This document shows positions 1,680-21,115 of a DNA stretch of 21,115 bases, in pieces. The translations under genes were made by a program, and so were the position numbers. Below the pieces are notes generated by a model that made no database searches, had not been told where the DNA came from, and saw nothing but the letters and a program-made list of their open reading frames with translations. This DNA comes from an uncultured Mollicutes bacterium (GTDB taxonomy: Bacteria > Bacillota_I > Bacilli_A > RF39 > UBA660). The stretch is from assembly GCA_946500425.1 (NCBI GenBank), contig CAMMVQ010000021.1:1-21115 (forward strand), in the 5' to 3' direction. How positions within the stretch are numbered: the stretch's first letter is position 1; every line of letters starts with the position of its first letter.

Positions 1680-1704
1680 AAAAACACGACTAATTCGTGT
1701 TTTT
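1680..1704 (-). terminator. Weak intrinsic terminator overlapping the recG stop codon
   Basis: The minus strand reads aaaaACACGAattagTCGTGTtttt. The stem is 6 bp, extendable by A:T pairs, with a 5-nt loop containing the TAG stop. Confidence 0.35.
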
Positions 1705-3618
1705 ACAATATTCATTCACGTCATCTCTTACTTTTAATATTAAGTCATAATCTTTTTTTATGTCAGATAACTTAAATGATAGTTCGCCACTTTGCCTAAC
1801 CCCAAAAATATCTCCTTGACCACGAAGTTTAAAATCAGCTTCACTTATTTTGTAGCCATCATTAGTCTCTTCCATTATCTTTAATCTTTGAACATCTTTA
1901 TCACTTATAAGATAGCAATAAGATTGTAAGTCATTTCTTCCCACCCTTCCTCTTAGCTGGTGTAAGGTAGAAAGTCCAAACCTATCAGCATCAAAAATAA
2001 CCATTATGGTAGAGTTTTTAACATCTACACCAACCTCAACCACCGTGGTAGATATTAAAATATTTATTTTATTTTCCAGGTACTCTTGCATAACTTTATC
2101 TTTTTCTTCGTTAGAAAGCTTCCCATGTAATATTCCCACCTTATAGTTCTTAAAAGCCAAATCAAACTTACGTTTTAAATCATTTACGTTGGTATAGTCT
2201 TCTTCATTTTCATCAATCATAGGTGCAATTACGTACGCTTGATTACCATTTTTTAAAGCTTCATAAATAGCACTTAAAACGTCTTTTAACTGTTCTGTTT
2301 TCTTTACATAAGTAATAACCTTCTTTCTTCCCTTTGGCATGGTTTTAATGCTTGAAACGTCCATGTCTCCATAAAGCGTTAGCGCGTAAGTTCTAGGAAT
2401 TGGCGTTGCACTCATCAAAAGAACGTCCGGACTTTTTGCCTTATCTTTTAAAGCAAGCCTTTGTGAAACTCCAAAACGATGCTGCTCATCAGTTATTACT
2501 AATCCTAAATTATTCCAAAGTACGTTTTTGCTAATTAAAGCATGGGTTCCAATTAAAAAATCAATTTGACCACTTTCTAATTTTTCATAAACCTTTTTCT
2601 TTTCTTTAGTACTCATTTTACCTGTCAATATTCCAACTCTAAAGTCTGTGCGAGAAAATAGTTTAATGGCGTTTTGATAATGTTGAAACGCAAGTATCTC
2701 GGTAGGCGCCATTAAAGCTGATTGAAATCCAGCAGTAAAAGCAGCGTAAGCAACTATAAAAGCCACGATTGTTTTTCCGGAACCCACGTCTCCTTGAAGA
2801 AGCCTATTCATTCTTACGTCAGACCTTAAATCGTCTAACATGTCATTAATAACCTTTTTTTGGTCAGAAGTAAGTTCAAAAGGAAGTGAACGTATTAATT
2901 CTTCAACTTTTTTCTCATCAAAATCTTTTACGTAAGATAAGTCATGTTTTTTATTCTTGGTTTTTAGCTCCTTTACCTTTTTCATGTAACCATAAATTTC
3001 TTCGTACTTTAGCGTTTTTAAGGCGGTTTTTAGCACTTTTACATTATCTGGAAAGTGAATTATTCTTACGGCTCTATCCTCATCAATAAAACCGTATTTA
3101 ACTTTTAATTCTTCTGGAATTAAATTCTCTTTTTTATAACTTACTAAAGCATTTTTTATAAATAAATTCATTTGTTTAGAAGTTATGTGCTTAGACGAAT
3201 GATAAACCGGAATTATTTGCGGTTTATCGGGAAGACTAGATAACAAGATGTCGCTAGCAACAAGGGTTTGTGTTTTTGGGTTATACTTTCCAATTACGGT
3301 TACTTCTTTGCCAGGATAAACATTATTTTTCATAAAAGCCCGGTTAAATATAATCACCTTAATCAAATGGTTTTGAGCGATAAACGAAAAAGACAAACGG
3401 TTCATGTTTCTTTTAAAAAAACTGATTACTGGGCTTGTTTGAACAACACCATCAATCACCATGTCATCATAAAACCTTTCATCATTAATGTTCTTCCTTG
3501 AAAGTATCTCAAAACGATACGGATAATTTCTAACAAGGTCATCTACCGACAAAATTCCCATCTCCTTTAGATGTTCCAAACTCTTGTCTCCAATTAATTT
3601 TACGTCACTTAGTTCCAT
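1690..3618 (-). CDS. recG: ATP-dependent DNA helicase RecG
   Basis: The protein has Walker A GDVGSGKT, a DEQHRFGV (DEAH-type) box, a QLRGRVGR motif and an N-terminal wedge/OB region. The track ORF starts at 3675. I prefer the ATG at 3618 (MELSDVK), which sits 7 nt after AAGGAAG. Confidence 0.93.
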   Translation of the reverse strand: MELSDVKLIGDKSLEHLKEMGILSVDDLVRNYPYRFEILSRKNINDERFYDDMVIDGVVQTSPVISFFKRNMNRLSFSFIAQNHLIKVIIFNRAFMKNNVYPGKEVTVIGKYNPKTQTLVASDILLSSLPDKPQIIPVYHSSKHITSKQMNLFIKNALVSYKKENLIPEELKVKYGFIDEDRAVRIIHFPDNVKVLKTALKTLKYEEIYGYMKKVKELKTKNKKHDLSYVKDFDEKKVEELIRSLPFELTSDQKKVINDMLDDLRSDVRMNRLLQGDVGSGKTIVAFIVAYAAFTAGFQSALMAPTEILAFQHYQNAIKLFSRTDFRVGILTGKMSTKEKKKVYEKLESGQIDFLIGTHALISKNVLWNNLGLVITDEQHRFGVSQRLALKDKAKSPDVLLMSATPIPRTYALTLYGDMDVSSIKTMPKGRKKVITYVKKTEQLKDVLSAIYEALKNGNQAYVIAPMIDENEEDYTNVNDLKRKFDLAFKNYKVGILHGKLSNEEKDKVMQEYLENKINILISTTVVEVGVDVKNSTIMVIFDADRFGLSTLHQLRGRVGRNDLQSYCYLISDKDVQRLKIMEETNDGYKISEADFKLRGQGDIFGVRQSGELSFKLSDIKKDYDLILKVRDDVNEYCKNTN

Positions 3619-3721
3619 TAACATTCTTCCTTTACTATCAAGATTATAACAAACAATTGTTTGCAAATCAACCAATCAAGTTTTTTAAATGAAATTTTTT
3701 TAAAAAATATTAAAAAAAGAG

Positions 3722-3906: not shown

Positions 3907-5346
3907 ATGACAAGTTCTAACAAACGAGAAAAAATTGTAAATACACTTAAAGAAAAAACTAATAACGCACCTGATATTAAGTATAAAGATTTTATAATAA
4001 ATAAACAAAACGTAACTTTTATATACTCGATGAGTGTGAGCAGTTCAACTAGTATAAATGATTTTATCCTAAGACGACTAGATGAGGAAAAAGGAAAAAT
4101 AAAAGATGAAAACATATACGAGTACATCAAAAATTTCATTCCTAACAATAACATTATTCCCTTTGATAAAAAAGAAGACATCTCTTATTACGTTATGAGT
4201 GGTTTTACCGTAGCAGTATTTGATGACGGAAGACTTTTGGCGTTTGAAAACCGTGCTAGTATTTATGGTTCGATTAGCAAAAGTGAAAACGAGCGAGGGC
4301 TTAAAGGACCTAGTGACGCATTTTCAGAAAACTATCAATTTAACATGGGAATGATAAGAAGAAGGGTAAAAACCGAGGACTTATGGATTGATGAAAAAAC
4401 CATTGGAACAAAAAGTAAAACCAAGGTTGCAATGTTTTATATAAAAGGTTTAACCAGTGAAGAAACAATAAGAAACATAAATGAAAAGTTAGACAAAATA
4501 AACATAGATTACGTGGGTAATACCAATTATATTTTAGAAGCAATGAGTAATACTAATAGATTCATCCTTCCTACTAACTTATCTACGGAAAGGCCGGATT
4601 TCGCGGCCCAGATGTTAATGCAAGGAAGAATTGTTTTAATCGTTGAAAACTCTAACGAAGCAATCATATTACCTTGTCTTTTCTTAGATTTCTTTAAGAA
4701 TCCAGAAGATTATTACGAAAAGGGACTTAACGTTATAATAAGTAGAACCGTAAGGTTTGTTGCGTTTTTTCTTACCGTATTTACCCCGGCCTTATACATA
4801 TCACTTATGGCTTTTAACTGGGAATCACTGCCAAGTGGACTTTTGATTAGTTTTTCCGTTCAAAGAGAAGGAGTTCCGTTTTCTTCAATCTTTGAAATTT
4901 TAGTAATGAGTTTGATGTTTCAAATTTTAAGGGAAAGTGACCTTAGGTTTCCTGGTAAAGGAGGTAGCTCAATTTCAATCGTTGGGGCTTTAGTATTAGG
5001 TCAAGCGGCCGTTGAAGCCGGTGTTGTCTCTCCAATTACGATAATAATAGTTGGTATAGCTTCAGTTTCATCACTTGCCTTTAGTTCGATTGACCTCATT
5101 AATGCGTGCCGGTGGTGGCAATTATTTTTAATAATAATGGCATGGATGTTTGGTTTTGTCGGAGTACTATTCGGAAGCTTAATAATACTAGCCACCCTAG
5201 TTAGCCAGTCTTCTTGTGGAGTTCCTTACTTTTCACCATTTGAACCATTTAGTTTAAAAGAACAACCAAACGTAATAATTCCAACCAAAAAAGAAAAATT
5301 TCATCCTAAAAATATTTTTAAAAAAGATGGGAGGAAAGAAAAATGA
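3907..5346 (+). CDS. Spore germination protein, GerA-family A subunit
   Basis: 479 aa. Family-typical stretch ERPDFAAQMLMQGRIVLIVENSNEAIILPCLFLDFFKNPEDYYEK, followed by C-terminal transmembrane segments. RBS AAGAGGG lies upstream. Confidence 0.9.
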   Translation: MTSSNKREKIVNTLKEKTNNAPDIKYKDFIINKQNVTFIYSMSVSSSTSINDFILRRLDEEKGKIKDENIYEYIKNFIPNNNIIPFDKKEDISYYVMSGFTVAVFDDGRLLAFENRASIYGSISKSENERGLKGPSDAFSENYQFNMGMIRRRVKTEDLWIDEKTIGTKSKTKVAMFYIKGLTSEETIRNINEKLDKINIDYVGNTNYILEAMSNTNRFILPTNLSTERPDFAAQMLMQGRIVLIVENSNEAIILPCLFLDFFKNPEDYYEKGLNVIISRTVRFVAFFLTVFTPALYISLMAFNWESLPSGLLISFSVQREGVPFSSIFEILVMSLMFQILRESDLRFPGKGGSSISIVGALVLGQAAVEAGVVSPITIIIVGIASVSSLAFSSIDLINACRWWQLFLIIMAWMFGFVGVLFGSLIILATLVSQSSCGVPYFSPFEPFSLKEQPNVIIPTKKEKFHPKNIFKKDGRKEK

Positions 5347-6548
5347 AACTAATCAAAATTTTAGTATTATTGCTAACCCTTATTAGTCTAACTGGTTGTT
5401 ATAACTATAAAGAGTTAAATGATTCAGCCATAGTATCTGCCATGTCCATAGATTTAGATGAAGATAATCCAGAAAAATATAAAGTTGGGGTTCAAATTAT
5501 GAACGCTAAGAAAAAAGAAAATAATAACGTTAGTGAAATAGCTTTTTTTGAAGCTTCTGGATTGTCAATTTATGACGCTTTAGGTTCAATTGTTCTTTCC
5601 TCCCCCAAACAACTATATCTAGGGCACATGGAAGTGGTAGTTCTTGGAGAAAAAATTTTAAAGCAAAAAAGTCCGCTTGACTTTTTAGACTTTTTCATGA
5701 GGGATTCAAGTGCGGAGAAAGATGCTGTTGTGGTTGTTTCAAGAGAAAAAAACGCAAGTGACATATTAAAAATATTAACCCCACTTGAAACAATAACATC
5801 TCAAAACCTAAAAGCAAGTTTATTTAACTCAGCAGATTTTAGTGGGACAACTAACATCGTAACGTTAGATGAATTAATCTCACATTTAATGGATGACAGC
5901 AAAGAAGCCATCTTACCGTCGGTTGAACTTACCGGGAAAGTAAATAAAGGGGAAAACATTGACAATTTATCAGACAGTGACCCGGATGTAAGAATAAGGT
6001 TTAGCAATCTTGCATTGCTAAAAGATGATAAATTAATTGGTTACTTAAGCAACAACGAAAGCTTTGGTTATAACGTAATTACCGCGGAAGCAGGAAATAC
6101 TTACATAAAATTTAAGTGCGACAACGAAAATTATGCTACTTTAGAACTTGTTTCTTTAAAAACTAACGAAGAAATATCATTTAAAAATAAAAAACCATTT
6201 GTAAACATTAACAACGAAACCAAAACAAACATAGTTGAATATAACTGTGATTTAGACCTCATAAAAGACGATAAGATAATTGATGAAATACAAAAGAAGG
6301 CAGAAAAAAGAATTGAATACTTAATGAATGATTTTTTGGATAAAGCATACGAAGAATACAAAACTGACGTACTACATTACGGCTCTACTTTTTATAAGGA
6401 AAAAAGAAACGAAATGAAAAAGTATGGTTACACAACAAAAAGTATCAAGGACGACATAAAGTTTAAAGTCACTTCAAAAGTTAAAGTAGACGCGGCAGGA
6501 TTAACCGTTAAATCAATTAATAACAAGGAGGATAAACGTGAAAGATAA
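5343..6548 (+). CDS. Spore germination lipoprotein, Ger(x)C-family C subunit
   Basis: 401 aa. Lipobox LISLTGC followed by YNYKELNDSAIVSAMSID, typical of GerAC-type proteins. An ATGA overlap with the A subunit suggests translational coupling. Confidence 0.85.
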   Translation: MKLIKILVLLLTLISLTGCYNYKELNDSAIVSAMSIDLDEDNPEKYKVGVQIMNAKKKENNNVSEIAFFEASGLSIYDALGSIVLSSPKQLYLGHMEVVVLGEKILKQKSPLDFLDFFMRDSSAEKDAVVVVSREKNASDILKILTPLETITSQNLKASLFNSADFSGTTNIVTLDELISHLMDDSKEAILPSVELTGKVNKGENIDNLSDSDPDVRIRFSNLALLKDDKLIGYLSNNESFGYNVITAEAGNTYIKFKCDNENYATLELVSLKTNEEISFKNKKPFVNINNETKTNIVEYNCDLDLIKDDKIIDEIQKKAEKRIEYLMNDFLDKAYEEYKTDVLHYGSTFYKEKRNEMKKYGYTTKSIKDDIKFKVTSKVKVDAAGLTVKSINNKEDKRER

Positions 6549-7629
6549 AGTTTCAAGCATTCAGGTTGCCATGCTTTTTGCGCTCGTGGTAAGTAGCATG
6601 TACCTTGGTCTTGGTGATATTATTCTTCTTGACATATCAAAAAATGACGCCTTAATATCCATGATAATTGGTATTATATTGGGATTAGTACCATTACTAA
6701 TGTATTTAAAAATAAACGATTGTTTTCCTGAATTAAACATATATAAAAAAAATAAAAAATTATTCGGAAACTTAGTTGGAAAATTATTAAACTTCTTATT
6801 TGTAATATTGTCCTTTATAATGATTGTCATTGCTTTTAGGTCCTTAATAACCTTTATAAATAGCAAATACCTAAGCGATACTCCTTACTATTTAATTGGA
6901 TTATTAGTCTTAGTAACATCAATTATATTATCAACTGGAAAATTAGAAAAACTAACTAGGGTAACACAAATAATATTTATAATAGCATTTATCTTAATTA
7001 TTTGTGTGGAACTATTTCTATCTGGTTACATAGAAATAGATAACTTGCTTCCTATCCTTACAACGAGTAAAGGAAATATATTATATGGAGCATTATACTA
7101 TGCTTCACTTACTTCTCTTACCTCTTTTTTCTTTTTGTCAATAAATAAATCAAAGATAAAAGATCATGAAAAATTTTCTAAAAACATGATAATATTTTAC
7201 TTAATAGCAACCGTATCATTAACTATCGTTATGTTTTACATAATAAGCTGTTTCGGATATGAATTAGCTTCAATATTTGAATATCCAGAGTACGTGATAC
7301 TTAAAAAAATAATTATCTCAAACTCGGATTTTCACATTGAAAACATTTTGTCCTTCAGGTGGATTTTCTACATTATTTCTCTTTCTAACATAGGTATATA
7401 CTCAATTAAAAAATGGTTAGAAGAAAGTAAGTTTACTAATAAAACGCAAATCACAATAGTAATTATAATATCATTGCTAGCTCTTTTCTTATCAAAAAAC
7501 ATATTTCCAAACGACCCAAACTCAATTATAGTATTTAAAAATTATTATTTAATCATTGTTGCGGTACCTATATTTATTATTCTATTAATTATCTATATAA
7601 GAAGCTTATTCATAACAAAAAGAACCTGA
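6538..7629 (+). CDS. Spore germination protein, GerAB-type (APC permease-like) B subunit
   Basis: 363 aa polytopic membrane protein with about 10 hydrophobic segments and an N-terminal KVSSIQVAMLFALVV motif. GTG start at 6538 follows AAGGAGG. Confidence 0.85.
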   Translation: MKDKVSSIQVAMLFALVVSSMYLGLGDIILLDISKNDALISMIIGIILGLVPLLMYLKINDCFPELNIYKKNKKLFGNLVGKLLNFLFVILSFIMIVIAFRSLITFINSKYLSDTPYYLIGLLVLVTSIILSTGKLEKLTRVTQIIFIIAFILIICVELFLSGYIEIDNLLPILTTSKGNILYGALYYASLTSLTSFFFLSINKSKIKDHEKFSKNMIIFYLIATVSLTIVMFYIISCFGYELASIFEYPEYVILKKIIISNSDFHIENILSFRWIFYIISLSNIGIYSIKKWLEESKFTNKTQITIVIIISLLALFLSKNIFPNDPNSIIVFKNYYLIIVAVPIFIILLIIYIRSLFITKRT

Positions 7630-11608: not shown

Positions 11609-11708
11609 TTTTTTGCCTCCATAAATTACTATTTGCCATTCTGTCCATACCAAAATTATACCATATAAAAAACATTTTATAATGTGGCCCCAAATAGGTA
11701 TACATCTA

Positions 11709-11736
11709 AAAAATTACCATAATGTAGGTAATTTTT
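11709..11736 (-). terminator. Intrinsic terminator overlapping the hydrolase stop codon
   Basis: The minus strand reads AAATTACC tacattat GGTAATTT followed by T residues. The stem is 11727-11734 paired with 11711-11718. Confidence 0.45.
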
Positions 11737-12736
11737 ATTTTAGATATTCCTTAAAAAACGCTTCAATCTTATCAAACGGAATAATATCTTTTTTATCATA
11801 AAGATCCGTATGAACGGCATCCGGTATAATCATTAACTCTTTGTTATTAGTATACTTACTATTTTCGGTCATGTTCTTATAAGCATCACGTGAAAAGTAA
11901 CAAGAATGTGCTTTTTCTCCATGAATCATCAACACCGCACTTCTTATTTCGTTTGAATACGTTAATATTGGCTGGTTAATAAACGACATTGTCCCAATAA
12001 CGTTCCATCCTTCGTTTGAATTTAAACTTCTTTCATGATATCCTCTTTTAGTTTTGTAATAATCATGGTAATCTTTTACGAAAAAGGGGGCATCAGTAGG
12101 TAGTGGGTCCACTACTCCTCCTGCTCTTTTATAAGTTCCGTTTTTATAATCTATCGTTCTTTGGTTATTTAAATTTACTTTGTTATTATATCTTGCTTCT
12201 TCGTTATCATCATTGTCAAAGTATCCGTTTGCATTTACCCTTGACATATCATACATTGTTGATGTAACCGTTGCTTTAATACGGGTATCTATTGCAGCGG
12301 TATTTAAAGCCATACCTCCCCAACCACAAATACCAATTATTCCTATTTTATTTGCATCAACCTCATCTAAGTTAGATAAATAATCAACTGCCGCCTGAAA
12401 ATCCTCCGTGTTTATATCAGGTGATGCCATGTATCTTGGTATGCCAGATGACTCACCAGTAAAAGAAGGATCAAAAGCTATGCATAAAAAACCTCTTTCA
12501 GCCATTTCTTGTGCGTATAAACCAGACGCCTGCTCTTTTACCGCACCAAAAGGTCCAGATACCGCGATTGCGGGTAATTTACCAGTATTATCTTTTGGCT
12601 CATAAAGGTCTGCCGCAAGTGTTATTCCATATCTGTTATGAAAAGTTACCTTTCTATGATTTACCTTATTGCTTTTTGAAAAGGTTTTATCCCAATTATT
12701 TGCTAAAACTAATTTTTCATCTTTCATTTTATTCAT
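11735..12736 (-). CDS. Alpha/beta hydrolase family protein
   Basis: 333 aa. It has a nucleophile-elbow-like IGIIGICGWGG and a late HTDLY histidine. The overall layout resembles dienelactone hydrolase/YcjY-like hydrolases. Confidence 0.75.
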   Translation of the reverse strand: MNKMKDEKLVLANNWDKTFSKSNKVNHRKVTFHNRYGITLAADLYEPKDNTGKLPAIAVSGPFGAVKEQASGLYAQEMAERGFLCIAFDPSFTGESSGIPRYMASPDINTEDFQAAVDYLSNLDEVDANKIGIIGICGWGGMALNTAAIDTRIKATVTSTMYDMSRVNANGYFDNDDNEEARYNNKVNLNNQRTIDYKNGTYKRAGGVVDPLPTDAPFFVKDYHDYYKTKRGYHERSLNSNEGWNVIGTMSFINQPILTYSNEIRSAVLMIHGEKAHSCYFSRDAYKNMTENSKYTNNKELMIIPDAVHTDLYDKKDIIPFDKIEAFFKEYLK

Positions 12737-12788
12737 TCCTTTCTATTTTAATTATAAATGATAGAGTTAACTCTAAGTCAAGCTTTTT

Positions 12789-13613
12789 TTAAATAACATA
12801 AATAATTATTTTTGATAATGCTTTAATAATAAATATTAATGGGAATATAAGAGAAATAAAGTAGATAAAATATTTAATAAAATTCTTTCCATTAAATGTT
12901 TTATAAAATAATTTTCTTATTTTATCCATAATGCCAAACCTCGTAATTATAAACGTAAATAATATAACTCCAAATATGTTTAAAATTATATCATCAACGT
13001 CAAATAATCCAACGCTTGTTATTTCTTGTAATAACTCAATTAATATAACAATTGGTGTGATAATTAGAAGTTGTCTTAACACGTTATTATATTTTTTATT
13101 TTTAACCATCAATAAAAATGATAACGGAACAAGCATAATAAGGTTTCCACCAACATTAAACACAATGCTTCTTACTGAGCCTTTAGTAAAATATGATGTA
13201 ATAGTGTTAAACGGTACTAAAGAGCCCTCATAAATACTTGTTAATCTTTCTAAGTCAAATCCAAAGCTAGTCCTTCCAATAAAGAACGTTATACTTATTA
13301 ATAAAATAATATAAAGAACTATATAAATAATAACGTTATTTTTGTAAGTTTTATCCCCATCTTTAATTAATCCGTAAGAAAAATATAGTAAAAATAATGA
13401 AATCATTATAAGTACTGCCTCTATTTTATCAATGCTATACCTAAATATTGGAGTAGCAACAGATAAATAATACATAAAAAGACCAACGGTTAAAATAAGT
13501 ATTATATCCGTAAAAGTTTTTAACTTATTTTTAAATATCTCTTTTTTTATTATTTTATAAATAAGGTATATAGCTAAAATAAATATTAACATAAATAAAA
13601 TAACATTATCCAT
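12789..13613 (-). CDS. VanZ-like family integral membrane protein
   Basis: 274 aa polytopic protein. SLVPFN.., NVGGNLIMLVPLSFLL, ELLQEITSVGLFDVDDIILNIFG match the VanZ pattern. Confidence 0.7.
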   Translation of the reverse strand: MDNVILFMLIFILAIYLIYKIIKKEIFKNKLKTFTDIILILTVGLFMYYLSVATPIFRYSIDKIEAVLIMISLFLLYFSYGLIKDGDKTYKNNVIIYIVLYIILLISITFFIGRTSFGFDLERLTSIYEGSLVPFNTITSYFTKGSVRSIVFNVGGNLIMLVPLSFLLMVKNKKYNNVLRQLLIITPIVILIELLQEITSVGLFDVDDIILNIFGVILFTFIITRFGIMDKIRKLFYKTFNGKNFIKYFIYFISLIFPLIFIIKALSKIIIYVI

Positions 13614-13662
13614 TTTAAAACTCCTTTACTACTTAATTATATTTTAACATAACAAAAGACAT

Positions 13663-14166: not shown

Positions 14167-14199
14167 AAAAAATGATAGTATTACTAATGTAATACTATC
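14167..14199 (-). terminator. Rho-independent terminator immediately after the retron RT
   Basis: The minus strand reads GATAGTATTAC atta GTAATACTATC ATTTTTTaaaggag. It is a perfect 11-bp stem (14189-14199 paired with 14174-14184) followed by T6. The plus-strand reading has no T-run. Confidence 0.7.
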
Positions 14200-14208
14200 A
14201 CTTAGAGC

Positions 14209-15168
14209 CTACTTTAAGTCAAGTTTTTTTACTAACTTTGTAACATCTTTTTTATAATTATTAAACTCAGTATCTTTAGTTATGTTATAAACGTGATTTA
14301 TTCTTCCTAGTAAATTTAAAAGATAAGTTTTTTCATCGCTTTTATACGCAATATTTTTTAAATGGCTTTTAAGATTGTATTTTTTTATGTAATACATCTC
14401 TTGCCTTATTTTTCTTTTGTAATTTCGCCTTATATTAACTTTTTCGTTAACTACTATTCCGGTTACTTGCTGTCTTATTTTTTTGCTTACAACCTTTATC
14501 TTTTTCTTATTTAACCTAAAATTATATTCGTATAATAACTCATTAACATATTTAATTAAATCCTTAACGTCAAAATCACCCGAAAAAGTTAAATCATCAG
14601 AGTACCTTGTATAATTAATATTTCTTTTTTCACAATAAGAACCAACCTTTTCATCGAAACTTCTTAAAACTATGTTTGATATAAAACCACTTGTCGGGGC
14701 TCCTGCAGGAAGTTTATTATTATAAACACACAAATTAGTAAAAAGCATTCCCATTTTTTTAGGATATAAAGTTTCATTAAAACAAGAATCATAAACCATA
14801 TTAAAAGTAATATTGTCAAAAAAATTCTTTATGTCTAGTTTAACGATTACGTCTTTATTTACGTGAGGTTTTGCATTATCTAAAACGGATACTTTCTTCC
14901 TGTACGCATAAGAATAACCTGATAACTTTTTTTCTTCTAAAACGTTTTTTAATATACGCCTTTGAATGCTTTTCAACTCTCTACTTGGTTCGTATAAAAA
15001 TCTTAGGCCACCGGATTTTTTTCGAATTATAATTTCTTCATAATTAGCATCTATGTTGTTACTAATATTATAAAGTATTTTATTTATTTTCTTTATATCA
15101 GTAGTATTAACTAAATTAAAAGATGATAACAAGTCGTTATATTTATCATTACTTAAATATACAAACAT
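14209..15168 (-). CDS. Retron-type reverse transcriptase
   Basis: 319 aa. Visible motifs are RKKSGGLRFLYEP, LKSIQRRIL, YAYRKKVSVLDNAKPH (NAxxH), DIKNFFDNI, LPAGAPTSGFISN, YTRYSDDLTFSG (YxDD) and the retron-typical RQQVTGIVVN (VTG). RBS GGAG lies 8 nt before the ATG. The protein has an RT domain only, with no fused effector. Confidence 0.9.
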   Translation of the reverse strand: MFVYLSNDKYNDLLSSFNLVNTTDIKKINKILYNISNNIDANYEEIIIRKKSGGLRFLYEPSRELKSIQRRILKNVLEEKKLSGYSYAYRKKVSVLDNAKPHVNKDVIVKLDIKNFFDNITFNMVYDSCFNETLYPKKMGMLFTNLCVYNNKLPAGAPTSGFISNIVLRSFDEKVGSYCEKRNINYTRYSDDLTFSGDFDVKDLIKYVNELLYEYNFRLNKKKIKVVSKKIRQQVTGIVVNEKVNIRRNYKRKIRQEMYYIKKYNLKSHLKNIAYKSDEKTYLLNLLGRINHVYNITKDTEFNNYKKDVTKLVKKLDLK

Positions 15169-15184
15169 ACTATCATCTCCTAAA

Positions 15185-15350
15185 TATAAGCAAGTACTAT
15201 AATATATTGTAACTAGCGAAATGTAGGAGTATTACGTGAAGCGTAAATTACTACATTGAGCGTTATCAATATAATGTATTTATTTAGTATTTCTTACTTT
15301 AGCGACTCGCTAAAAAGATTTTTATAAAATCAAAACGCTGCTTGCTTACA
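15185..15350 (-). ncRNA. Predicted retron msr-msd non-coding RNA
   Basis: It sits directly upstream of the RT and ends 17 nt before the ATG. The termini form the a2/a1 duplex: TGTAAGCAAG (15350..15341) pairs with CTTGCTTATA (15194..15185), 10 bp including one G:U. The 5' half holds msr-like hairpins GATTTT ata AAAATC and TTTAGC gagtc GCTAAA. The 3' half holds an msd-like long hairpin AATGTAG..TTACG cttca CGTAA..CTACATT (15257..15220). TATAAT at 15361..15356 lies just upstream. Confidence 0.65.
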
Positions 15351-15400
15351 AGAATATTATATAACAAAATATAAAAATTTACTATTTAATTCAATCTATT

Positions 15401-16514
15401 TTAATCCAATCTCTTTGTATTCTTTTTAATTTTATTATTATTAATAATACTTATAATATCACTATCTTCTATGGTTTTTGATGTTTTAAAAAATTCTTTT
15501 ATATCAAAAGTTATGCTTTCTACATCATAATTATCAGGATCAAATCCTAACTTTTTCATCTTATCTATTATTACGTGTTTGCCAGAATGCACACCAATTA
15601 CCATACTATCAACGTATATTCCATATCTTTTAGGATCCATTATCTCATACGTTTTTTTATTTTTTAAGACACCTGCCTGGTGAATTCCAGCCTCATGTTT
15701 AAAAGCGTTAGCACCAACTATTGGCTTATTGTGTTGTACGGATGATCCGGTTATAGAAGAAACTAGCAAGCTCGCCTCATAAATCATTTTAGTATTAATG
15801 TTTGTTTTAGCATTATAATATTCTTTTTTAGTATCTAGGTTTGCAACCACTTCTTCCAAAGCAGTGTTACCAGCTCTTTCATCAATTCCGTTTATCGTGC
15901 ATTCTACTTGTGTTACTCCTGCTAAAATGACACTCATAGAATTTGCCGTTGCAAGTCCCAAATCATTATGACAATGAACTGATATATTTACCTTATTCAA
16001 ATTACTATTTTCCTTTAAGTAAATTATAAATGCTCTAAATTCATCTGGTGATGTATATCCTACCGTGTCCGGTATATTAATCGTTATTGCACCAGCTTTA
16101 ATTGCTTCATCAATTACTTTACAAGCATATACCTTATCAGTCCTTGTTGCATCTTCCAAAGAAAACTCTATATCATAACACTTTTCTTTAGCATAACTAA
16201 CAAATTCTTTAACCATTTCTAAAACTTCTTCTTTTGTTTTTCCTAGCTTATCATAAACGTGCGTATCACTTGTTCCTATAAAAACATGTATCCTTGGTTT
16301 TTTAGCATCCCAAGCCATGTTCTATATCACGTTTATTAAGCCTTGCAAGTGATGCAACAGATGCGTTATTAACTACCTTACTTATTTCTTTTATCGATTC
16401 AAAATCACTATAAAAGGTGCTTCTAAAGTTTATTTGTTTTACTTCATATTTATCATTTTTAAGTTCTAGTTCTATGTCGTCAATATATCTCATAACAATA
16501 TCAGCTCTAGTATA
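15401..16514 (-). pseudogene. 2-isopropylmalate/citramalate/homocitrate synthase-like (HMGL/LeuA family) pseudogene, 5'-truncated and frameshifted
   Basis: ORF 15401..16318 carries HCHNDLGLATANS, INGIDERAGN (canonical INGIGERAGN) and HEAGIHQ. ORF 16302..16493 carries the preceding ..DFESIKEI..ASVASLARLNKRDIE segment in another frame. Deleting one nt near 16319-16320 restores ..RDIEMAWDAKKPRIHVF... The catalytic N-terminal DTTLRDGEQ region is absent, and an in-frame stop lies at 16515-16517. Confidence 0.75.
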
Positions 16515-16519
16515 TCAAT

Positions 16520-17141
16520 CTAGTAAACCCCAATTATCATAAAAGCATAATAAGATATAGGAAGTTTTACTTTATTTATAAAGTCCATATCTCTTTTAAG
16601 TAATATATCTTCAGTAGTGAAGTTTAATTGTTCTGCTTGTGAGCTTTTTAATAATTTAGAATTAATCATTTCCATTTGATTTTCTATTATTTTAGATTCT
16701 TGTTTAAATTCTTCTTCAGTAAATAATTCATCAATATATGCTTTTCTAATTCTCTCTTTTTTATTATTTAATTTCTTTAATTCTTTTTCTAATTGTTCTT
16801 TAGGATTATCTACTTTTGATTTTAAAACCGGCAAAAAGAATTCATTAACGACATTATCGTATTCTAATATATCATAAAGTAAAGTTTTAATTTTTTCTTC
16901 GTTTTTCATAAATATCAAATTCTTTTATCAAAAAAGAGGAGACAAAAGTACTTACAAGTAATACCATATTATCTTTTTTTACAATAATTCTATGTGGTTC
17001 TTCTATACTGATATTGGTATTATTAATTTTAATAAGATGTCCCGGTAAAAAATTGATTTTTAAGTTTCCTGTACTAATTTTCATTTTAATTTTGTCTTTA
17101 ATTTCACAGGGAAAAGATAGTTTTGTTATGACTGTTTTCAT
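16520..17141 (-). pseudogene. Probable C-terminal remnant of a large serine recombinase (degenerate zinc-ribbon and coiled-coil region), frameshifted
   Basis: ORF 16520..16918 has the coiled-coil pattern ..LEKELKKLNNKKERIRKAYIDELFTEEEFKQESKIIENQMEMINSKL.., typical of large serine recombinase C-termini. ORF 16887..17141 (..PCEIKDKIKMKISTG..NISIEEPHRIIV..) fits a decayed zinc-ribbon segment. Deleting one A from the A5 run (plus T5 16902-16906) fuses the two ORFs (..DIYENEEKIKTLL..). No resolvase catalytic domain is present. Confidence 0.4.
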
Positions 17142-17166
17142 AAATATTCATCCCTCCTTTGAGCAT

Positions 17167-17199
17167 GAAAAAAGTCCATAGCATCAAATACTATGAACT
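17167..17199 (-). terminator. Rho-independent terminator about 125 nt downstream of the STAND gene
   Basis: The minus strand reads AGTTCATAG tatttgatg CTATGGACT TTTTTc. The 9-bp stem has one G:U pair, which would be a C:A mismatch on the plus strand. Confidence 0.6.
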
Positions 17200-17323
17200 T
17201 TTCTTTATATAGAAATCGCCAAATGTGCGACTTTCAACTTCAATGGAGCGAATCACATACAAGTTACGAACTATGTTCTCTTTCTAAAAGTTATTATAAA
17301 TCTAATTATATTTTTTATCAATA

Positions 17324-20300
17324 TTAATTGTAAAAATCGTCTAAATATTCCTTAATTTTTGTCTTCTTGATATCTTCTTTATACCAATCTATTATAGAGT
17401 TTATATAATCAATGTGAAAAATATAGTTTATATCACTTTTAATTAAAATTTTATTTTTTAAACTTTCTAAAAATTCAATTTTATTTTCGATCAATGGTAT
17501 TCTACTATTACTCCATGATTCAGAACGTGAGAAAAAATTAATAGTTTTAAATATTTCTATATCATTATTTAATTCTAACAAATACAATATTAATTCTTCT
17601 TTTGTTTTTTTATCTCTTTCGCATATTATATAAAAAACAGTTTTAATTTTTTCTTTATCCTTATTATTAAATTTAATATATTCTTTTAACCATTTATTTT
17701 GTATTTTTTTGATATTATCGTCAGAGTAATTGAATAAATTATGTAAATCAAAATAACCAAAATTTGAATCTAAGATTTCGTTATATATTTTTGTGATTAA
17801 AGCATTTGAATTATTATCATTCCATACATTTTTAATAATTTCATGTATATTACCATTATGATTAAATCCTTTATTTTTGAGAATTTGTCTAAAAAATATA
17901 TAATTGTTTTTAACTAGTAAAAATCCCATATATCCATTATGATCAACAAAACTATTTACAATTTTCAAGTATAATTGTTCTAATATATCCTTATTATTAA
18001 ATGCATTATATATTTTTTTTATTTCTTCAAAGTTATCTGTTAGATTGTTGGTATAACTTACTATTAGGCTAAATTCATCTAAATTAAGTATTTCTTTTGT
18101 ATAATTTTCAACTATAGAAGAATCATATATCGAATAATTTACAATTGTTGATAAATTTAGTGTATATTTATCTTCCATATCCTGCTGTTCTTTTAAAAAA
18201 CATTTAACGTTATTCAGGTATTTTTCATCTACTAATGAATTAAAAAAGAAGCTTAAAAAGAAATATTTTGAATTACTATTACTTTTAACTAATAAATTAA
18301 TGATTTCATCTTTATTATCTATTGAGAGTAAATAATTTGGGTATGAATTGAATGGACAATCATAATTTAAATAGTATGCAAAAACTTCTCTAAATATATC
18401 AACTTTATTTTTAATAATATATTTAAATAACAGTGTAATTGAATTTTTAATTTTCCAATCATCTACTTTAACTTTATCATTCTCTACTTTTTTTAAAATT
18501 TTAAAAAAATATTTATAATCCATTGATGATGCTTTTACTAAAAGTTCGTTTAACTCGTGATTTTCTTTATCATAATCATACTTTTCAAAAATTCTTAATG
18601 TGCTATATTCTTTATTTTTTTTATAATTGTTTATTGATTCTGTAACAGAAATATCTCTTTGTTTACACATCTTTTCAATAAAATCTAACACCTTACATTG
18701 AGAAATATTAGGTTTTTTCCATTTGCAGAATAGTTCCTTTTCTAATATTTGAAAATCATTTTTTATGATATCAACTTGTTCATCTTTATGAGGCCATATA
18801 GAATAATCCATTAATAAGCTTATATAATTATGGTCATCTATGTATATTTTTATAAATACATCAAATAAGAATTTTCTAAACTGAAATAAATTTTTACAAG
18901 GTTGTAAAGTGATTGTTATAAGATTTAATGTCCTAAAATTTTTACCTTGTTCACTTATATGAAATTCTGTTTCTAAACAATATTTTAATGATTTTATTAA
19001 TATTAGTTTTAATATACTATTATATTTATTCTTTTCGTTATATATATCAAACAATATTGAAATAATACTTGTTTCAAGTTTGAAATTTTGATTTTTATCT
19101 TTCATCAACCAAGAATCTTTTATACTTTTGCATATTTCATTATATAAATCGGGTCTTTTCATTAAATATGAAATTAGTAACTTAAATGCTATTTCGGAAT
19201 AATCAGAATTCTTGATGTCTGCTAATATCTCAAGTATTTCGTCATTAATATAAACATTATCATTATAGTGTATTTCTTGTGGAATACTTGCTTGTTTCTC
19301 TGATTTTATTTTACTATCTATAATAGTTAATGTTTTTGGAATATTTATGTTGTGAAATAGCTTAAAAAACAAATCATCATTTTTATAATCATCTTTTTCC
19401 CAAACAGTATTTATTTCACTTGTTACATACTCTAATTCATCAAAGCTGTAAAACAAATCATTTATCATATTAATAGCATTTATAAATTTTCTTATAAAGT
19501 TTGGATATATTTGTATTAACAAATCAGAAATTTTTATTTCTTTCATTTCTATTAAATATTTATATATTATATAATTTGCAAAATTTTGATCACTAATTTT
19601 TATTGCTTCATTATTATAAAATTCTATTAATTCTAAATATCTTAAATTTTTAAATTCTTCAATGTCATATATTTCAATGTTTTTTAATGTATCTTTTATT
19701 TCTTGATTTTCAATACTGAAAGGAGAAAAAAGAGAAATATAAAATAATATTTTTATTTGAAAAGTTGAAAGTTTATTTTCTTCTATAATTCTATCATAGT
19801 AACTTTTAAATACATCTAATATATTGTTTAAATATTTTATTTTCCCGTCTAATATTGATTGTGAAGCCATTACAGCAATTCTAGGATTACCATTTGAAAT
19901 TTTTAATATTTGTTGTTGTACTTTTTTGTTTTTAATATTAAAAGATTTTTCAAGTATTTTTATAATATCGCTATCTTCCATTTTATTCAATGTATAAACT
20001 TTTGGAATTATATTATTATTATTTAATTTACTTAAAATTTCATTCAAAAGGTAGTCTCTTATTGTAGCTACAACTTTTATGTTTTTATTTTTATTAGTAA
20101 TTATGCAATCAATAAAACTTTTAAGTTGATGTAAATTATTAATATCATCTATAAATATTAAATAATTTTTATTATTCTCTAATGCTGTTTTGATATCATC
20201 ATATATATCTTTCCCGTTTGGTCTAATACATAAGCAGCATAAGTCTTCTTTATTTTCCAAATACTTACATATTTCAATTGCAATTTTAGTTTTACCTATT

Positions 20301-20935
20301 CCAGCTTTACCTGTAAGTAATAATAGTGTTTCGGTATCATTAATGTTATTAATAATCTCTTTTTTTTCTTTTCTTTCAATATATTCTAAAGATAATGGAG
20401 AATTAACAGAAAATTTGTCATATCTTTTTATAAAATCTTCTATATCACTTATTTGATTAGTATCAATAGGTATTTGTAAATGATCATTTGCTATACTTTG
20501 ATAATTTTCACAAATATCGTGAGCCATTGAATCTATATCAATCAGTTCTATATTTATATCATTATATAACGTTTTTAATCTATTATAATCTCCAGGCTTT
20601 ATGTTCGTATTTGTATGAAAGCAAATAATTTCTTTAATCTTATCTGATGATATTCCTGTTTTATTTTTAGAATAAGCTTCTTTAATATCCTTTTCTAATT
20701 TAGATATAGATTGTTTTTCTACAGTTCCATACATAAGTAAAGAATATGTGCCATCTTCATTAATATTATATGAATCTGGGATTCCCTTAGTTGTTTTATT
20801 TGTTCCTTCTTTGCTACCTATATCGTGTATATTTTTATAATTTTTTTTCTTTATAATGTAATCGGCACAAAATCTTTGATATTCTCCAGGACCTAGTCCT
20901 AAAATACTTTGCTGTATTTTTAAAAATTTAGACAT
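17324..20935 (-). CDS. Large STAND/NB-ARC-like P-loop NTPase with an unassigned N-terminal domain and a long helical C-terminal region (Avs-like antiphage candidate)
   Basis: 1203 aa. Walker A is LLLLTGKAGIGKTK (GKAGIGKT maps to 20288..20311, checked against the DNA). Walker B is NYLIFIDD (20144..20161). These are followed by KVVATIRD and a GxP-like ISNGNPRIAV. The N-terminal roughly 160 aa has GEYQRFCADYII..KGIPDSY..SLLMYGTVEK. About 800 aa of Asn/Lys/Ile-rich helical sequence follows the NTPase. A strong RBS AGGAGG lies upstream. Confidence 0.75.
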   Translation of the reverse strand: MSKFLKIQQSILGLGPGEYQRFCADYIIKKKNYKNIHDIGSKEGTNKTTKGIPDSYNINEDGTYSLLMYGTVEKQSISKLEKDIKEAYSKNKTGISSDKIKEIICFHTNTNIKPGDYNRLKTLYNDINIELIDIDSMAHDICENYQSIANDHLQIPIDTNQISDIEDFIKRYDKFSVNSPLSLEYIERKEKKEIINNINDTETLLLLTGKAGIGKTKIAIEICKYLENKEDLCCLCIRPNGKDIYDDIKTALENNKNYLIFIDDINNLHQLKSFIDCIITNKNKNIKVVATIRDYLLNEILSKLNNNNIIPKVYTLNKMEDSDIIKILEKSFNIKNKKVQQQILKISNGNPRIAVMASQSILDGKIKYLNNILDVFKSYYDRIIEENKLSTFQIKILFYISLFSPFSIENQEIKDTLKNIEIYDIEEFKNLRYLELIEFYNNEAIKISDQNFANYIIYKYLIEMKEIKISDLLIQIYPNFIRKFINAINMINDLFYSFDELEYVTSEINTVWEKDDYKNDDLFFKLFHNINIPKTLTIIDSKIKSEKQASIPQEIHYNDNVYINDEILEILADIKNSDYSEIAFKLLISYLMKRPDLYNEICKSIKDSWLMKDKNQNFKLETSIISILFDIYNEKNKYNSILKLILIKSLKYCLETEFHISEQGKNFRTLNLITITLQPCKNLFQFRKFLFDVFIKIYIDDHNYISLLMDYSIWPHKDEQVDIIKNDFQILEKELFCKWKKPNISQCKVLDFIEKMCKQRDISVTESINNYKKNKEYSTLRIFEKYDYDKENHELNELLVKASSMDYKYFFKILKKVENDKVKVDDWKIKNSITLLFKYIIKNKVDIFREVFAYYLNYDCPFNSYPNYLLSIDNKDEIINLLVKSNSNSKYFFLSFFFNSLVDEKYLNNVKCFLKEQQDMEDKYTLNLSTIVNYSIYDSSIVENYTKEILNLDEFSLIVSYTNNLTDNFEEIKKIYNAFNNKDILEQLYLKIVNSFVDHNGYMGFLLVKNNYIFFRQILKNKGFNHNGNIHEIIKNVWNDNNSNALITKIYNEILDSNFGYFDLHNLFNYSDDNIKKIQNKWLKEYIKFNNKDKEKIKTVFYIICERDKKTKEELILYLLELNNDIEIFKTINFFSRSESWSNSRIPLIENKIEFLESLKNKILIKSDINYIFHIDYINSIIDWYKEDIKKTKIKEYLDDFYN

Positions 20936-20971
20936 ATTTAACCTCCTTTCTTTTCTTTTTAATGTATCTTT

Positions 20972-21115
20972 TTAAAAAATATTACTTAATAACATCCAAT
21001 TATCATTTTCCATATCTTCTGTATATTCTGTATTACATAAATATAATGAATCATTCTTATCGTAATCTCTAACAAATCCCCAATTTACATTATACTTTTT
21101 AGCATATTCTTTTAA
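20972..21115 (-). CDS. Hypothetical protein, C-terminal 47 aa only (5' end beyond window). It lies 36 nt upstream of the STAND gene.
   Basis: Own translation of the minus strand from the window edge gives LKEYAKKYNVNWGFVRDYDKNDSLYLCNTEYTEDMENDNWMLLSNIF, with stop TAA at 20972-20974. It shares strand and composition with the STAND gene, and I saw no terminator between them. Confidence 0.45.
   Translation of the reverse strand, partial: LKEYAKKYNVNWGFVRDYDKNDSLYLCNTEYTEDMENDNWMLLSNIF

Follow-up and report, generated by a model that had tools for sequence, protein, structure and literature searches.

An intact retron without a partner toxin gene alongside it in an uncultured low-GC gut bacterium

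Anatomy of the retron cassette

We analysed a 21,115-nt stretch of DNA from an uncultured Mollicutes bacterium (contig CAMMVQ010000021.1 of assembly GCA_946500425.1, 27% GC), which we call the window and in which a model reading the sequence alone had pointed to a retron with no recognisable effector gene in cis. The retron cassette occupies positions 14167-15361 of the minus strand and consists of a -10 box, a 166-nt msr-msd RNA gene, the gene for a 319-aa reverse transcriptase (RT) and a terminator hairpin (Table 1); the -10 box, the msr-msd non-coding RNA (ncRNA) and the minimal RT together form a module of ∼1.15 kb. The sequence elements by which retrons are recognised are all present: an RT domain with the YxDD box, the NAxxH and VTG motifs and, upstream of the RT gene, an ncRNA closed by the inverted repeats a1 and a2 that contains a branching G, msr hairpins and an msd. 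The locus is a genuine, intact retron, and no partner toxin gene lies alongside it.

Table 1. Features of the retron cassette and its immediate flanks (positions in the window; RBS, ribosome-binding site; MFE, minimum free energy)
Feature	Position	Strand	Remarks
-10 box, TATAAT	15356-15361	minus	5 nt upstream of a1
a1, 5' arm of terminal inverted repeat, UGUAAGCAAGCA	15339-15350	minus	pairs with a2 in the MFE fold
Predicted branching (priming) G	15338	minus	directly 3' of a1; column G13 of the alignment
msr hairpin 1, GAUUUU-AUA-AAAAUC	15317-15331	minus	MFE and centroid fold
msr hairpin 2, UUUAGCG-AGU-CGCUAAA	15298-15314	minus	most conserved element of the RNA
msd, long imperfect hairpin, predicted template of the multicopy single-stranded DNA (msDNA)	15203-15273	minus	MFE fold
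a2, 3' arm of terminal inverted repeat, UACUUGCUUAUA	15185-15196	minus	preceded by a conserved AG; fold and covariation
Retron RT, 319 aa	14209-15168	minus	NAKPH, YSDD and VTG motifs; GGAG RBS at 15177-15180
Intrinsic-terminator-like hairpin, 11 bp, loop AUUA, then A and U6	14167-14199	minus	between the RT stop and the RBS of the cyclophilin-like gene
Flank: membrane-anchored Cyclophilin_like2 protein, 162 aa	13663-14151	minus	PF18050, 3.6e-33; no PADLOC match
Flank: leuA/HMGL-type pseudogene	15401-16493	minus	5'-truncated, frameshifted

The translation of the RT gene carries DNAKPH (the NAxxH motif of region X), YSDD and RQQVTGIVVN (the VTG motif of region Y), as the original prediction had it; the definitions of the two retron motifs are those of PMC7736814 and PMC6868368. 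The sole Pfam match of the protein is RVT_1 (3.2e-21, residues 48-237) and there is no fused domain. The top PADLOC profile was RT_Ec107-like (PDLC03739; 1.5e-115, 383.7 bits, profile positions 3-306 of 307), which stands for a stand-alone retron family, followed by RT_III-A (1e-99, 331.8 bits) and by further, weaker III-A models. We also considered that the protein might not be a retron RT at all, being instead an Abi, DRT/UG or group II intron RT. The NCBIfam models for group II RTs and Drt2 do match it weakly, at 61.6 bits against a cut-off of 300 (group_II_RT_mat) and at 48.5 against 390 (Drt2), i.e. below membership of either family. In contrast, the 25 best listed PADLOC matches (of 53) are all to retron RT models, every match in a search of PDB sequences was a retron RT (the best, Ec86, at 6e-38), NAxxH and VTG are present and the region upstream has a canonical msr-msd with its branching G. 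PADLOC, PDB and NCBIfam agree on a retron RT, as first predicted, and a non-retron identity, to which we give next to no credence, is effectively refuted.

More than 5000 homologues of the RT were found below 1e-20. The best 120 listed have RVT_1 as their single domain and, except for two fragments, are 312-320 aa long. Compared with its three closest relatives, the RT gave dN/dS values of 0.11-0.18 (Nei-Gojobori), and the more distant, partly saturated comparisons gave similar ones. The RT is kept under purifying selection, indicating that the cassette is not decaying. In addition, the same cassette is present, identical, in four assemblies (L052-L055; we refer to related loci by such numbers).

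With a -10 box and a terminator of its own, the cassette is self-contained. Nearly all related loci have a TATAAT-like hexamer equally close to a1 on its upstream side; a consensus promoter scan called no full -35/-10 pair at the retron promoter. On the other side, the RT stop codon is followed after 9 nt by a perfect 11-bp hairpin (14174-14199), and the T6 run (14167-14172) begins one base further on, in agreement with the hairpin and T6 within 10 nt of the stop that had been predicted. None of 200 shuffles folded as well as this terminator (-23.8 kcal/mol, z = -6.6). A simple terminator scanner missed the hairpin, its sole match being the palindromic msr hairpin 2 on the plus strand, and we therefore relied on folding. 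The RT gene is followed by a hairpin and a T-run, differing in sequence, also in L004, L005, L043 and L042.

Upstream of the RT gene, the original prediction had placed a structured region of roughly 165 nt with terminal inverted repeats, which held up. The ncRNA region (15185-15350, 166 nt) folds at -37.4 kcal/mol (z = -2.9, with one of 200 shuffles equally good) into the canonical msr-msd plan, i.e. a terminal a1/a2 stem of 10-12 bp, two short hairpins and one 71-nt hairpin. Neither a gathering scan of the window nor an E-value scan of the ncRNA region against Rfam returned anything meaningful (best match RsaOG, E = 1). The terminal repeats and the G after a1 could be located in ∼40 loci, of which 31 were aligned. 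Both the terminal stem and msr hairpin 2 were recovered by RNAalifold, and in a structure of 22 pairs 93% of the cells are paired, with compensatory changes in 20 of the 22 pairs. None of 500 shuffles matched any of these measures, and when the partners were slid by 1-3 columns only 32-47% remained paired.

The individual elements differ in how they are conserved over the 31 loci. The branching G is invariant (31/31) and stands in the conserved context UA-G-YG. At the position of msr hairpin 1, most aligned loci have a hairpin of variable sequence. In msr hairpin 2, with its core GCG-AGU-CGC, columns G43, A44 and T46 are invariant and the adjoining columns are at least 90% conserved; its helix of 8 pairs is 95% paired and shows compensatory changes in 7 of them. 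By analogy with other retrons, this hairpin is likely the recognition site of the RT. The inner stem of the msd (AAUGUA/UACAUU) is conserved as well, with compensatory changes in five of its six pairs.

Neighbours of the RT gene in the window and in related loci

A scan for the RT in species-representative genomes gave 51 loci, in which all open reading frames (ORFs) were clustered and the cluster representatives annotated with Pfam and PADLOC. The closest relative of the RT (92% identity) belongs to Candidatus Aphodocola excrementigallinarum, and the rest come from metagenome-assembled genomes of uncultured gut Bacilli, 'Tenericutes' and Clostridia. Three synteny groups were found. In group A, genes for NUDIX, methionyl-tRNA synthetase (MetRS), an optional ToxN, an SLT-domain protein and an optional HMGL protein come before the RT gene, and either a cyclophilin-like protein and an alpha/beta hydrolase or Mur ligase, ThyA and DHFR come after it. 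In group B the order is XerC-type recombinase, GATase, CTP synthase, RT and ZIP, and in group C it is MscS, AbgT, RT, YchF and Bax1-I. There are also ∼20 singleton contexts, with neighbours such as an rRNA methyltransferase and rpoB, a UvrD-type helicase, LytR, NlpC/P60 and GH43. Over ∼43 RT loci the neighbours are heterogeneous and mostly housekeeping genes, and the clustering of the 51 loci revealed no protein cluster next to the RT that is common across the synteny groups.

The effectors of the known retron types were not found either. PADLOC matched no defence-effector model to any ORF adjoining the window RT. The partners of type III-A retrons, a phosphoribosyltransferase-like (PRTase-like) and a winged-helix protein, were absent from the window, from the 10-kb flanks in L052 and from the surroundings of the RT in the ∼43 loci. 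For types I, II and IV-XIII there was no PADLOC match in the flanking ORFs and no extra domain on the RT, the effector kinds covered being ATPase/HNH, Toprim, NDT, 2TM, cold-shock, DUF3800, HEPN, protease, TIR and SWIM-type. The predicted lack of a recognisable cis effector and of an extra RT domain is thus borne out, and the missing cis effector is the normal state of this lineage, not a local deletion.

Two ORFs of 86 and 354 aa in L007 (8927-10244), found also in L008, were considered as effectors and rejected: they are absent from the other group-B loci and have no PADLOC match. They overlap the RT stop and each other; the 86-aa ORF is weakly similar to the housekeeping hypothetical protein PRK13678, and the 354-aa ORF has no Pfam match. 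Both are probably housekeeping genes.

In the window, the gene next to the RT on the downstream side encodes the cyclophilin-like protein (Table 1). The original prediction had named this protein, together with a VanZ-like protein encoded beyond it (12797-13661), as a possible new class of retron effector, which would be expressed by read-through from the RT gene. The cyclophilin-like gene is on the same strand, 57 nt past the RT stop; in L001-L003, as in the window, the two genes stay together. The membrane anchor of the protein is reminiscent of the 2TM effectors that type IV retrons have. However, the gene adjoins the RT only in these loci. In all relatives below ∼89% identity it is missing beside the RT, where Mur ligase, ZIP, YchF, rpoB-linked genes and others are found instead. 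A strong hairpin with U6 separates it from the RT gene, homology to more distant cassettes ends short of it (see below) and no PADLOC model matches. The VanZ-like gene is an indel, shared with the window by L002 only and missing from the corresponding place in L001 and L003. We therefore consider it very improbable that the cyclophilin-like protein acts as a retron effector, whether alone or together with VanZ.

The second candidate was a STAND NTPase, which might serve the retron as an effector in trans. It was predicted to lie about 2 kb upstream on the same strand, and its gene (17324-20935) is indeed 2.15 kb upstream of the RT. STAND NTPases are common as defence effectors or sensors. The 1203-aa nSTAND-type protein (a weak match to PF25199) is, however, found only in the window strain, and nothing related is encoded near any other RT locus. 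Its gene has a GC content of 20% versus 25-30% in the surroundings. It is part of an inserted block, by which the leuA-like gene was truncated and which also holds a NikA-like gene and the two genes of a type III restriction-modification system (MTase_III, 5e-124; REase_III, 4e-14). That this NTPase is the partner of the retron seems to us scarcely credible. Across the synteny groups, none of the cyclophilin-like, VanZ and STAND genes co-occurs with the RT.

The inserted island adjoins the retron. It covers 16409-21115 of the window on the minus strand and extends into L052 1-8900; short ORFs at 16520-17141 read as serine-recombinase remnants from the sequence and gave no profile match. The predicted dead leuA-like gene upstream of the cassette was verified by comparison with the intact 390-aa gene of L001: about the first 40 residues are gone, there is a frameshift near residue 81, and the homology of the window to L001 stops at 16409, inside the gene. 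In L003 the leuA/HMGL gene is likewise intact (390 aa). The insertion of the island, which removed the 5' end, accounts for the dead gene.

Farther away in the window, a 661-aa protein encoded at 1690-3675 (minus strand) has weak PADLOC matches to helicases (Cas3, DpdF and PbeA; 1e-9 to 1e-11) and is probably a generic superfamily-2 helicase. Positions 3907-7629 hold a germination-receptor operon (GerA, GerAC and spore permease). These genes make the label 'low-GC spore-former' reasonable, although the nearest relatives with a name, Candidatus Aphodocola, are gut Bacilli that have not been cultured.

Boundaries and mobility of the cassette

We determined the borders of the cassette from its relatives. 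The blastn homology of the window to its 70%-identical relatives L004 and L043 is confined to 14230-15377, i.e. to the -10 box, the ncRNA and the RT. It starts at 15370/15377, just upstream of the -10 box, and ends at ∼14230, before the cyclophilin-like gene. A closer comparison was provided by L061 and L057, whose flanks are 92-94% identical. Between a common metG terminator and a common downstream terminator, L061 carries a 1190-bp retron cassette (11672-12861) and L057 an SLT-domain transglycosylase gene (11725-12899); in this pair the downstream terminator is part of the common flank and lies outside the swapped cassette. This replacement indicates that the retron is a swappable accessory cassette at a variable spot. 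In a metagenome scan anchored on MetRS, one of 80 MetRS loci (L061) had an RT. L057-L059 encode MetRS, SLT, Mur ligase, ThyA and DHFR and no RT, L110 is likewise without one, and in these near relatives the site of the cassette is empty or otherwise filled. The retron is a swappable accessory unit downstream of metG, present in some near relatives and absent from others.

Between metG and the retron, a gene for ToxN (type III toxin-antitoxin; PF13958, 4e-47) was seen in L004 (7088-7603), in L002 and, as a fragment, in L005. With ToxN present in some relatives, the site behind metG thus behaves as a small islet of variable content.

At first we favoured the idea that the retron is a vertically inherited, domesticated core gene. 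The housekeeping contexts in the three synteny groups, together with an RT identity that follows the synteny group, hint at vertical inheritance; identities within group A are 87-94% for MetRS and 66-92% for the RT. The idea was weakened by the MetRS scan, with its single RT and its empty or refilled sites. In phage and plasmid collections, the best RT matches were 38-43% identical and no mobile vector for the sub-lineage was found.

The Ec107-like lineage and possible modes of action

Finally, we compared the retron with known systems. The original prediction assumed that every classified retron type couples the RT and ncRNA to an effector, a premise that is outdated because stand-alone clade 2 retrons have been published. 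Mestre et al. (2020) described 'stand-alone (msr-msd)-RT cassettes' both in clade 11 and in one branch of RT clade 2 (PMC7736814). Retron-Ec107 (Eco5), a 1.3-kb unit of msr-msd-ret only, is the prototype (PMC7736814, PMC6868368). The genomes that host stand-alone retrons are mostly without known retron-associated proteins, and Mestre et al. did not decide between effectors that act in trans and a different function (PMC7736814). An effector in trans thus survives as the published open question of the lineage, without the STAND NTPase as the partner. Nor are low-GC retrons poorly explored, as had been supposed: in a 2026 preprint (SPIRE survey; 10.64898/2026.05.14.725207), 178 of 192 clade2_Ec107like retrons are from Bacillota, 91% are host-associated, they have no accessory modules and the group is rated low in novelty. 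The window retron is a fresh member of this already described, still unexplained effector-less lineage of gut Firmicutes.

Like Ec107 and the Ec107-like retrons of clade 2, it is a minimal msr-msd-RT cassette of ∼1.2-1.3 kb with an RT of ∼319 aa and no fused domain; it has no recurrent accessory gene, its best profile is RT_Ec107-like and its host range (gut Bacillota) fits the published distribution. As with Ec107, which in E. coli replaces a 34-bp intergenic palindrome (PMC6868368), it lies among ordinary chromosomal genes, outside prophage, as a replacement at an intergenic spot. It differs from Ec107 in its catalytic box (YSDD versus the YCDD reported for Ec107, PMC6868368), in a predicted msDNA shorter than 107 nt and in its host, which is not E. 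coli but a low-GC, uncultured gut bacterium of the Bacillus class that is close to Candidatus Aphodocola. This likeness is based on the profile and on published descriptions of Ec107. The stand-alone retrons of clade 11 (Mestre et al. 2020) are also msr-msd-RT cassettes without an associated protein cluster, but they belong to another RT clade and another host phylum (mostly Actinobacteria). Type III-A retrons, which combine the RT with PRTase-like and winged-helix proteins, are the sister RT group and have the same overall ncRNA plan as the window; unlike them, the window and the ∼43 related RT loci have neither protein as a neighbour.

The relation to type III-A raises the question of decay. 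Mestre et al. suggested the loss of an associated PRTase from the Ec107 branch (PMC7736814), and the window cassette might be the remnant of a former type III-A-like retron that lost its PRTase/winged-helix effector and no longer functions in this strain. This would be consistent with III-A as the second-best RT profile, with a broken pair near the branching G that the window alone has and with the pseudogene in the flank. However, the low dN/dS (0.11-0.18) includes the pairs with the window, the ORF is of full length with all catalytic and retron-specific motifs intact, compensatory changes maintain the ncRNA helices and four assemblies carry the identical cassette; the pseudogene is due to the neighbouring island insertion and not to decay of the retron. 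We consider a decaying remnant unlikely. Of the 'orphan or decaying retron' proposed originally, the orphan part stands, as there is no cis effector, and the decaying part does not.

The identity of the retron, its anatomy, conservation and selection and its missing cis partner were observed, and we hold that it is probably a functional member of the stand-alone Ec107-like branch (RT clade 2, Mestre et al. 2020), with msDNA synthesis and a role that we infer from other retrons. Several points weigh against this view. The Ec107-like label follows from a profile match, in which RT_III-A trails by only ∼50 bits. In the a1/a2 helix, all 8 aligned pairs show compensatory double changes, and these counts are biased because the ends of the RNA were picked by complementarity; the msr hairpin and msd helices are free of that selection. 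C15340 lies opposite A15195, a C·A mismatch one pair from the branching G. At that column no other of the 31 sequences has a broken pair, the same base is found in the four independent assemblies (L052-L055), and the mismatch might lower msDNA priming in the window strain. Furthermore, the synthesis of msDNA and the part of G15338 as the 2'-OH primer are presumed from retron biochemistry, and the accessory, phage-related role is presumed from the context and from other retrons.

If the window retron works as other retrons do, transcription would start at about a1 and the a1/a2 stem would close the RNA. The RT would then bind the conserved GCG-AGU-CGC hairpin and prime on the 2'-OH of G15338, and the msd hairpin would be copied from just 5' of a2, near 15197, into branched msDNA, with a predicted length of roughly 75-90 nt. 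The RT-msDNA complex would be the active product, acting through a factor encoded elsewhere or by itself, and by analogy its role is most likely an accessory, phage-related one.

A precedent for a defence system that consists of an RT and its own ncRNA alone, with no separate protein effector, is DRT2. It differs in that its RT is of an unrelated class and makes rolling-circle concatenated cDNA, as opposed to branched msDNA primed on a 2'-OH. We tentatively raise the possibility that the Ec107-like retrons of gut Bacillota are complete two-component systems, in which RT-msDNA is itself the effector or acts via a conserved host factor. If this is true, their action would be unlike the scheme of 'msDNA-antitoxin plus protein toxin' of other retron types, and natural presence/absence pairs such as L061 and L057 would make it directly testable. 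As a single locus, the window retron adds little, being one more member of a published lineage, from the host group in which such retrons are already known to be commonest. Its value is that of a clean example in which to ask what retrons without an effector do: its boundaries are set within ∼20 bp, its RNA is backed by covariation, its RT is under selection, the candidates among its neighbours have been set aside, and genomes with and without the cassette are at hand.

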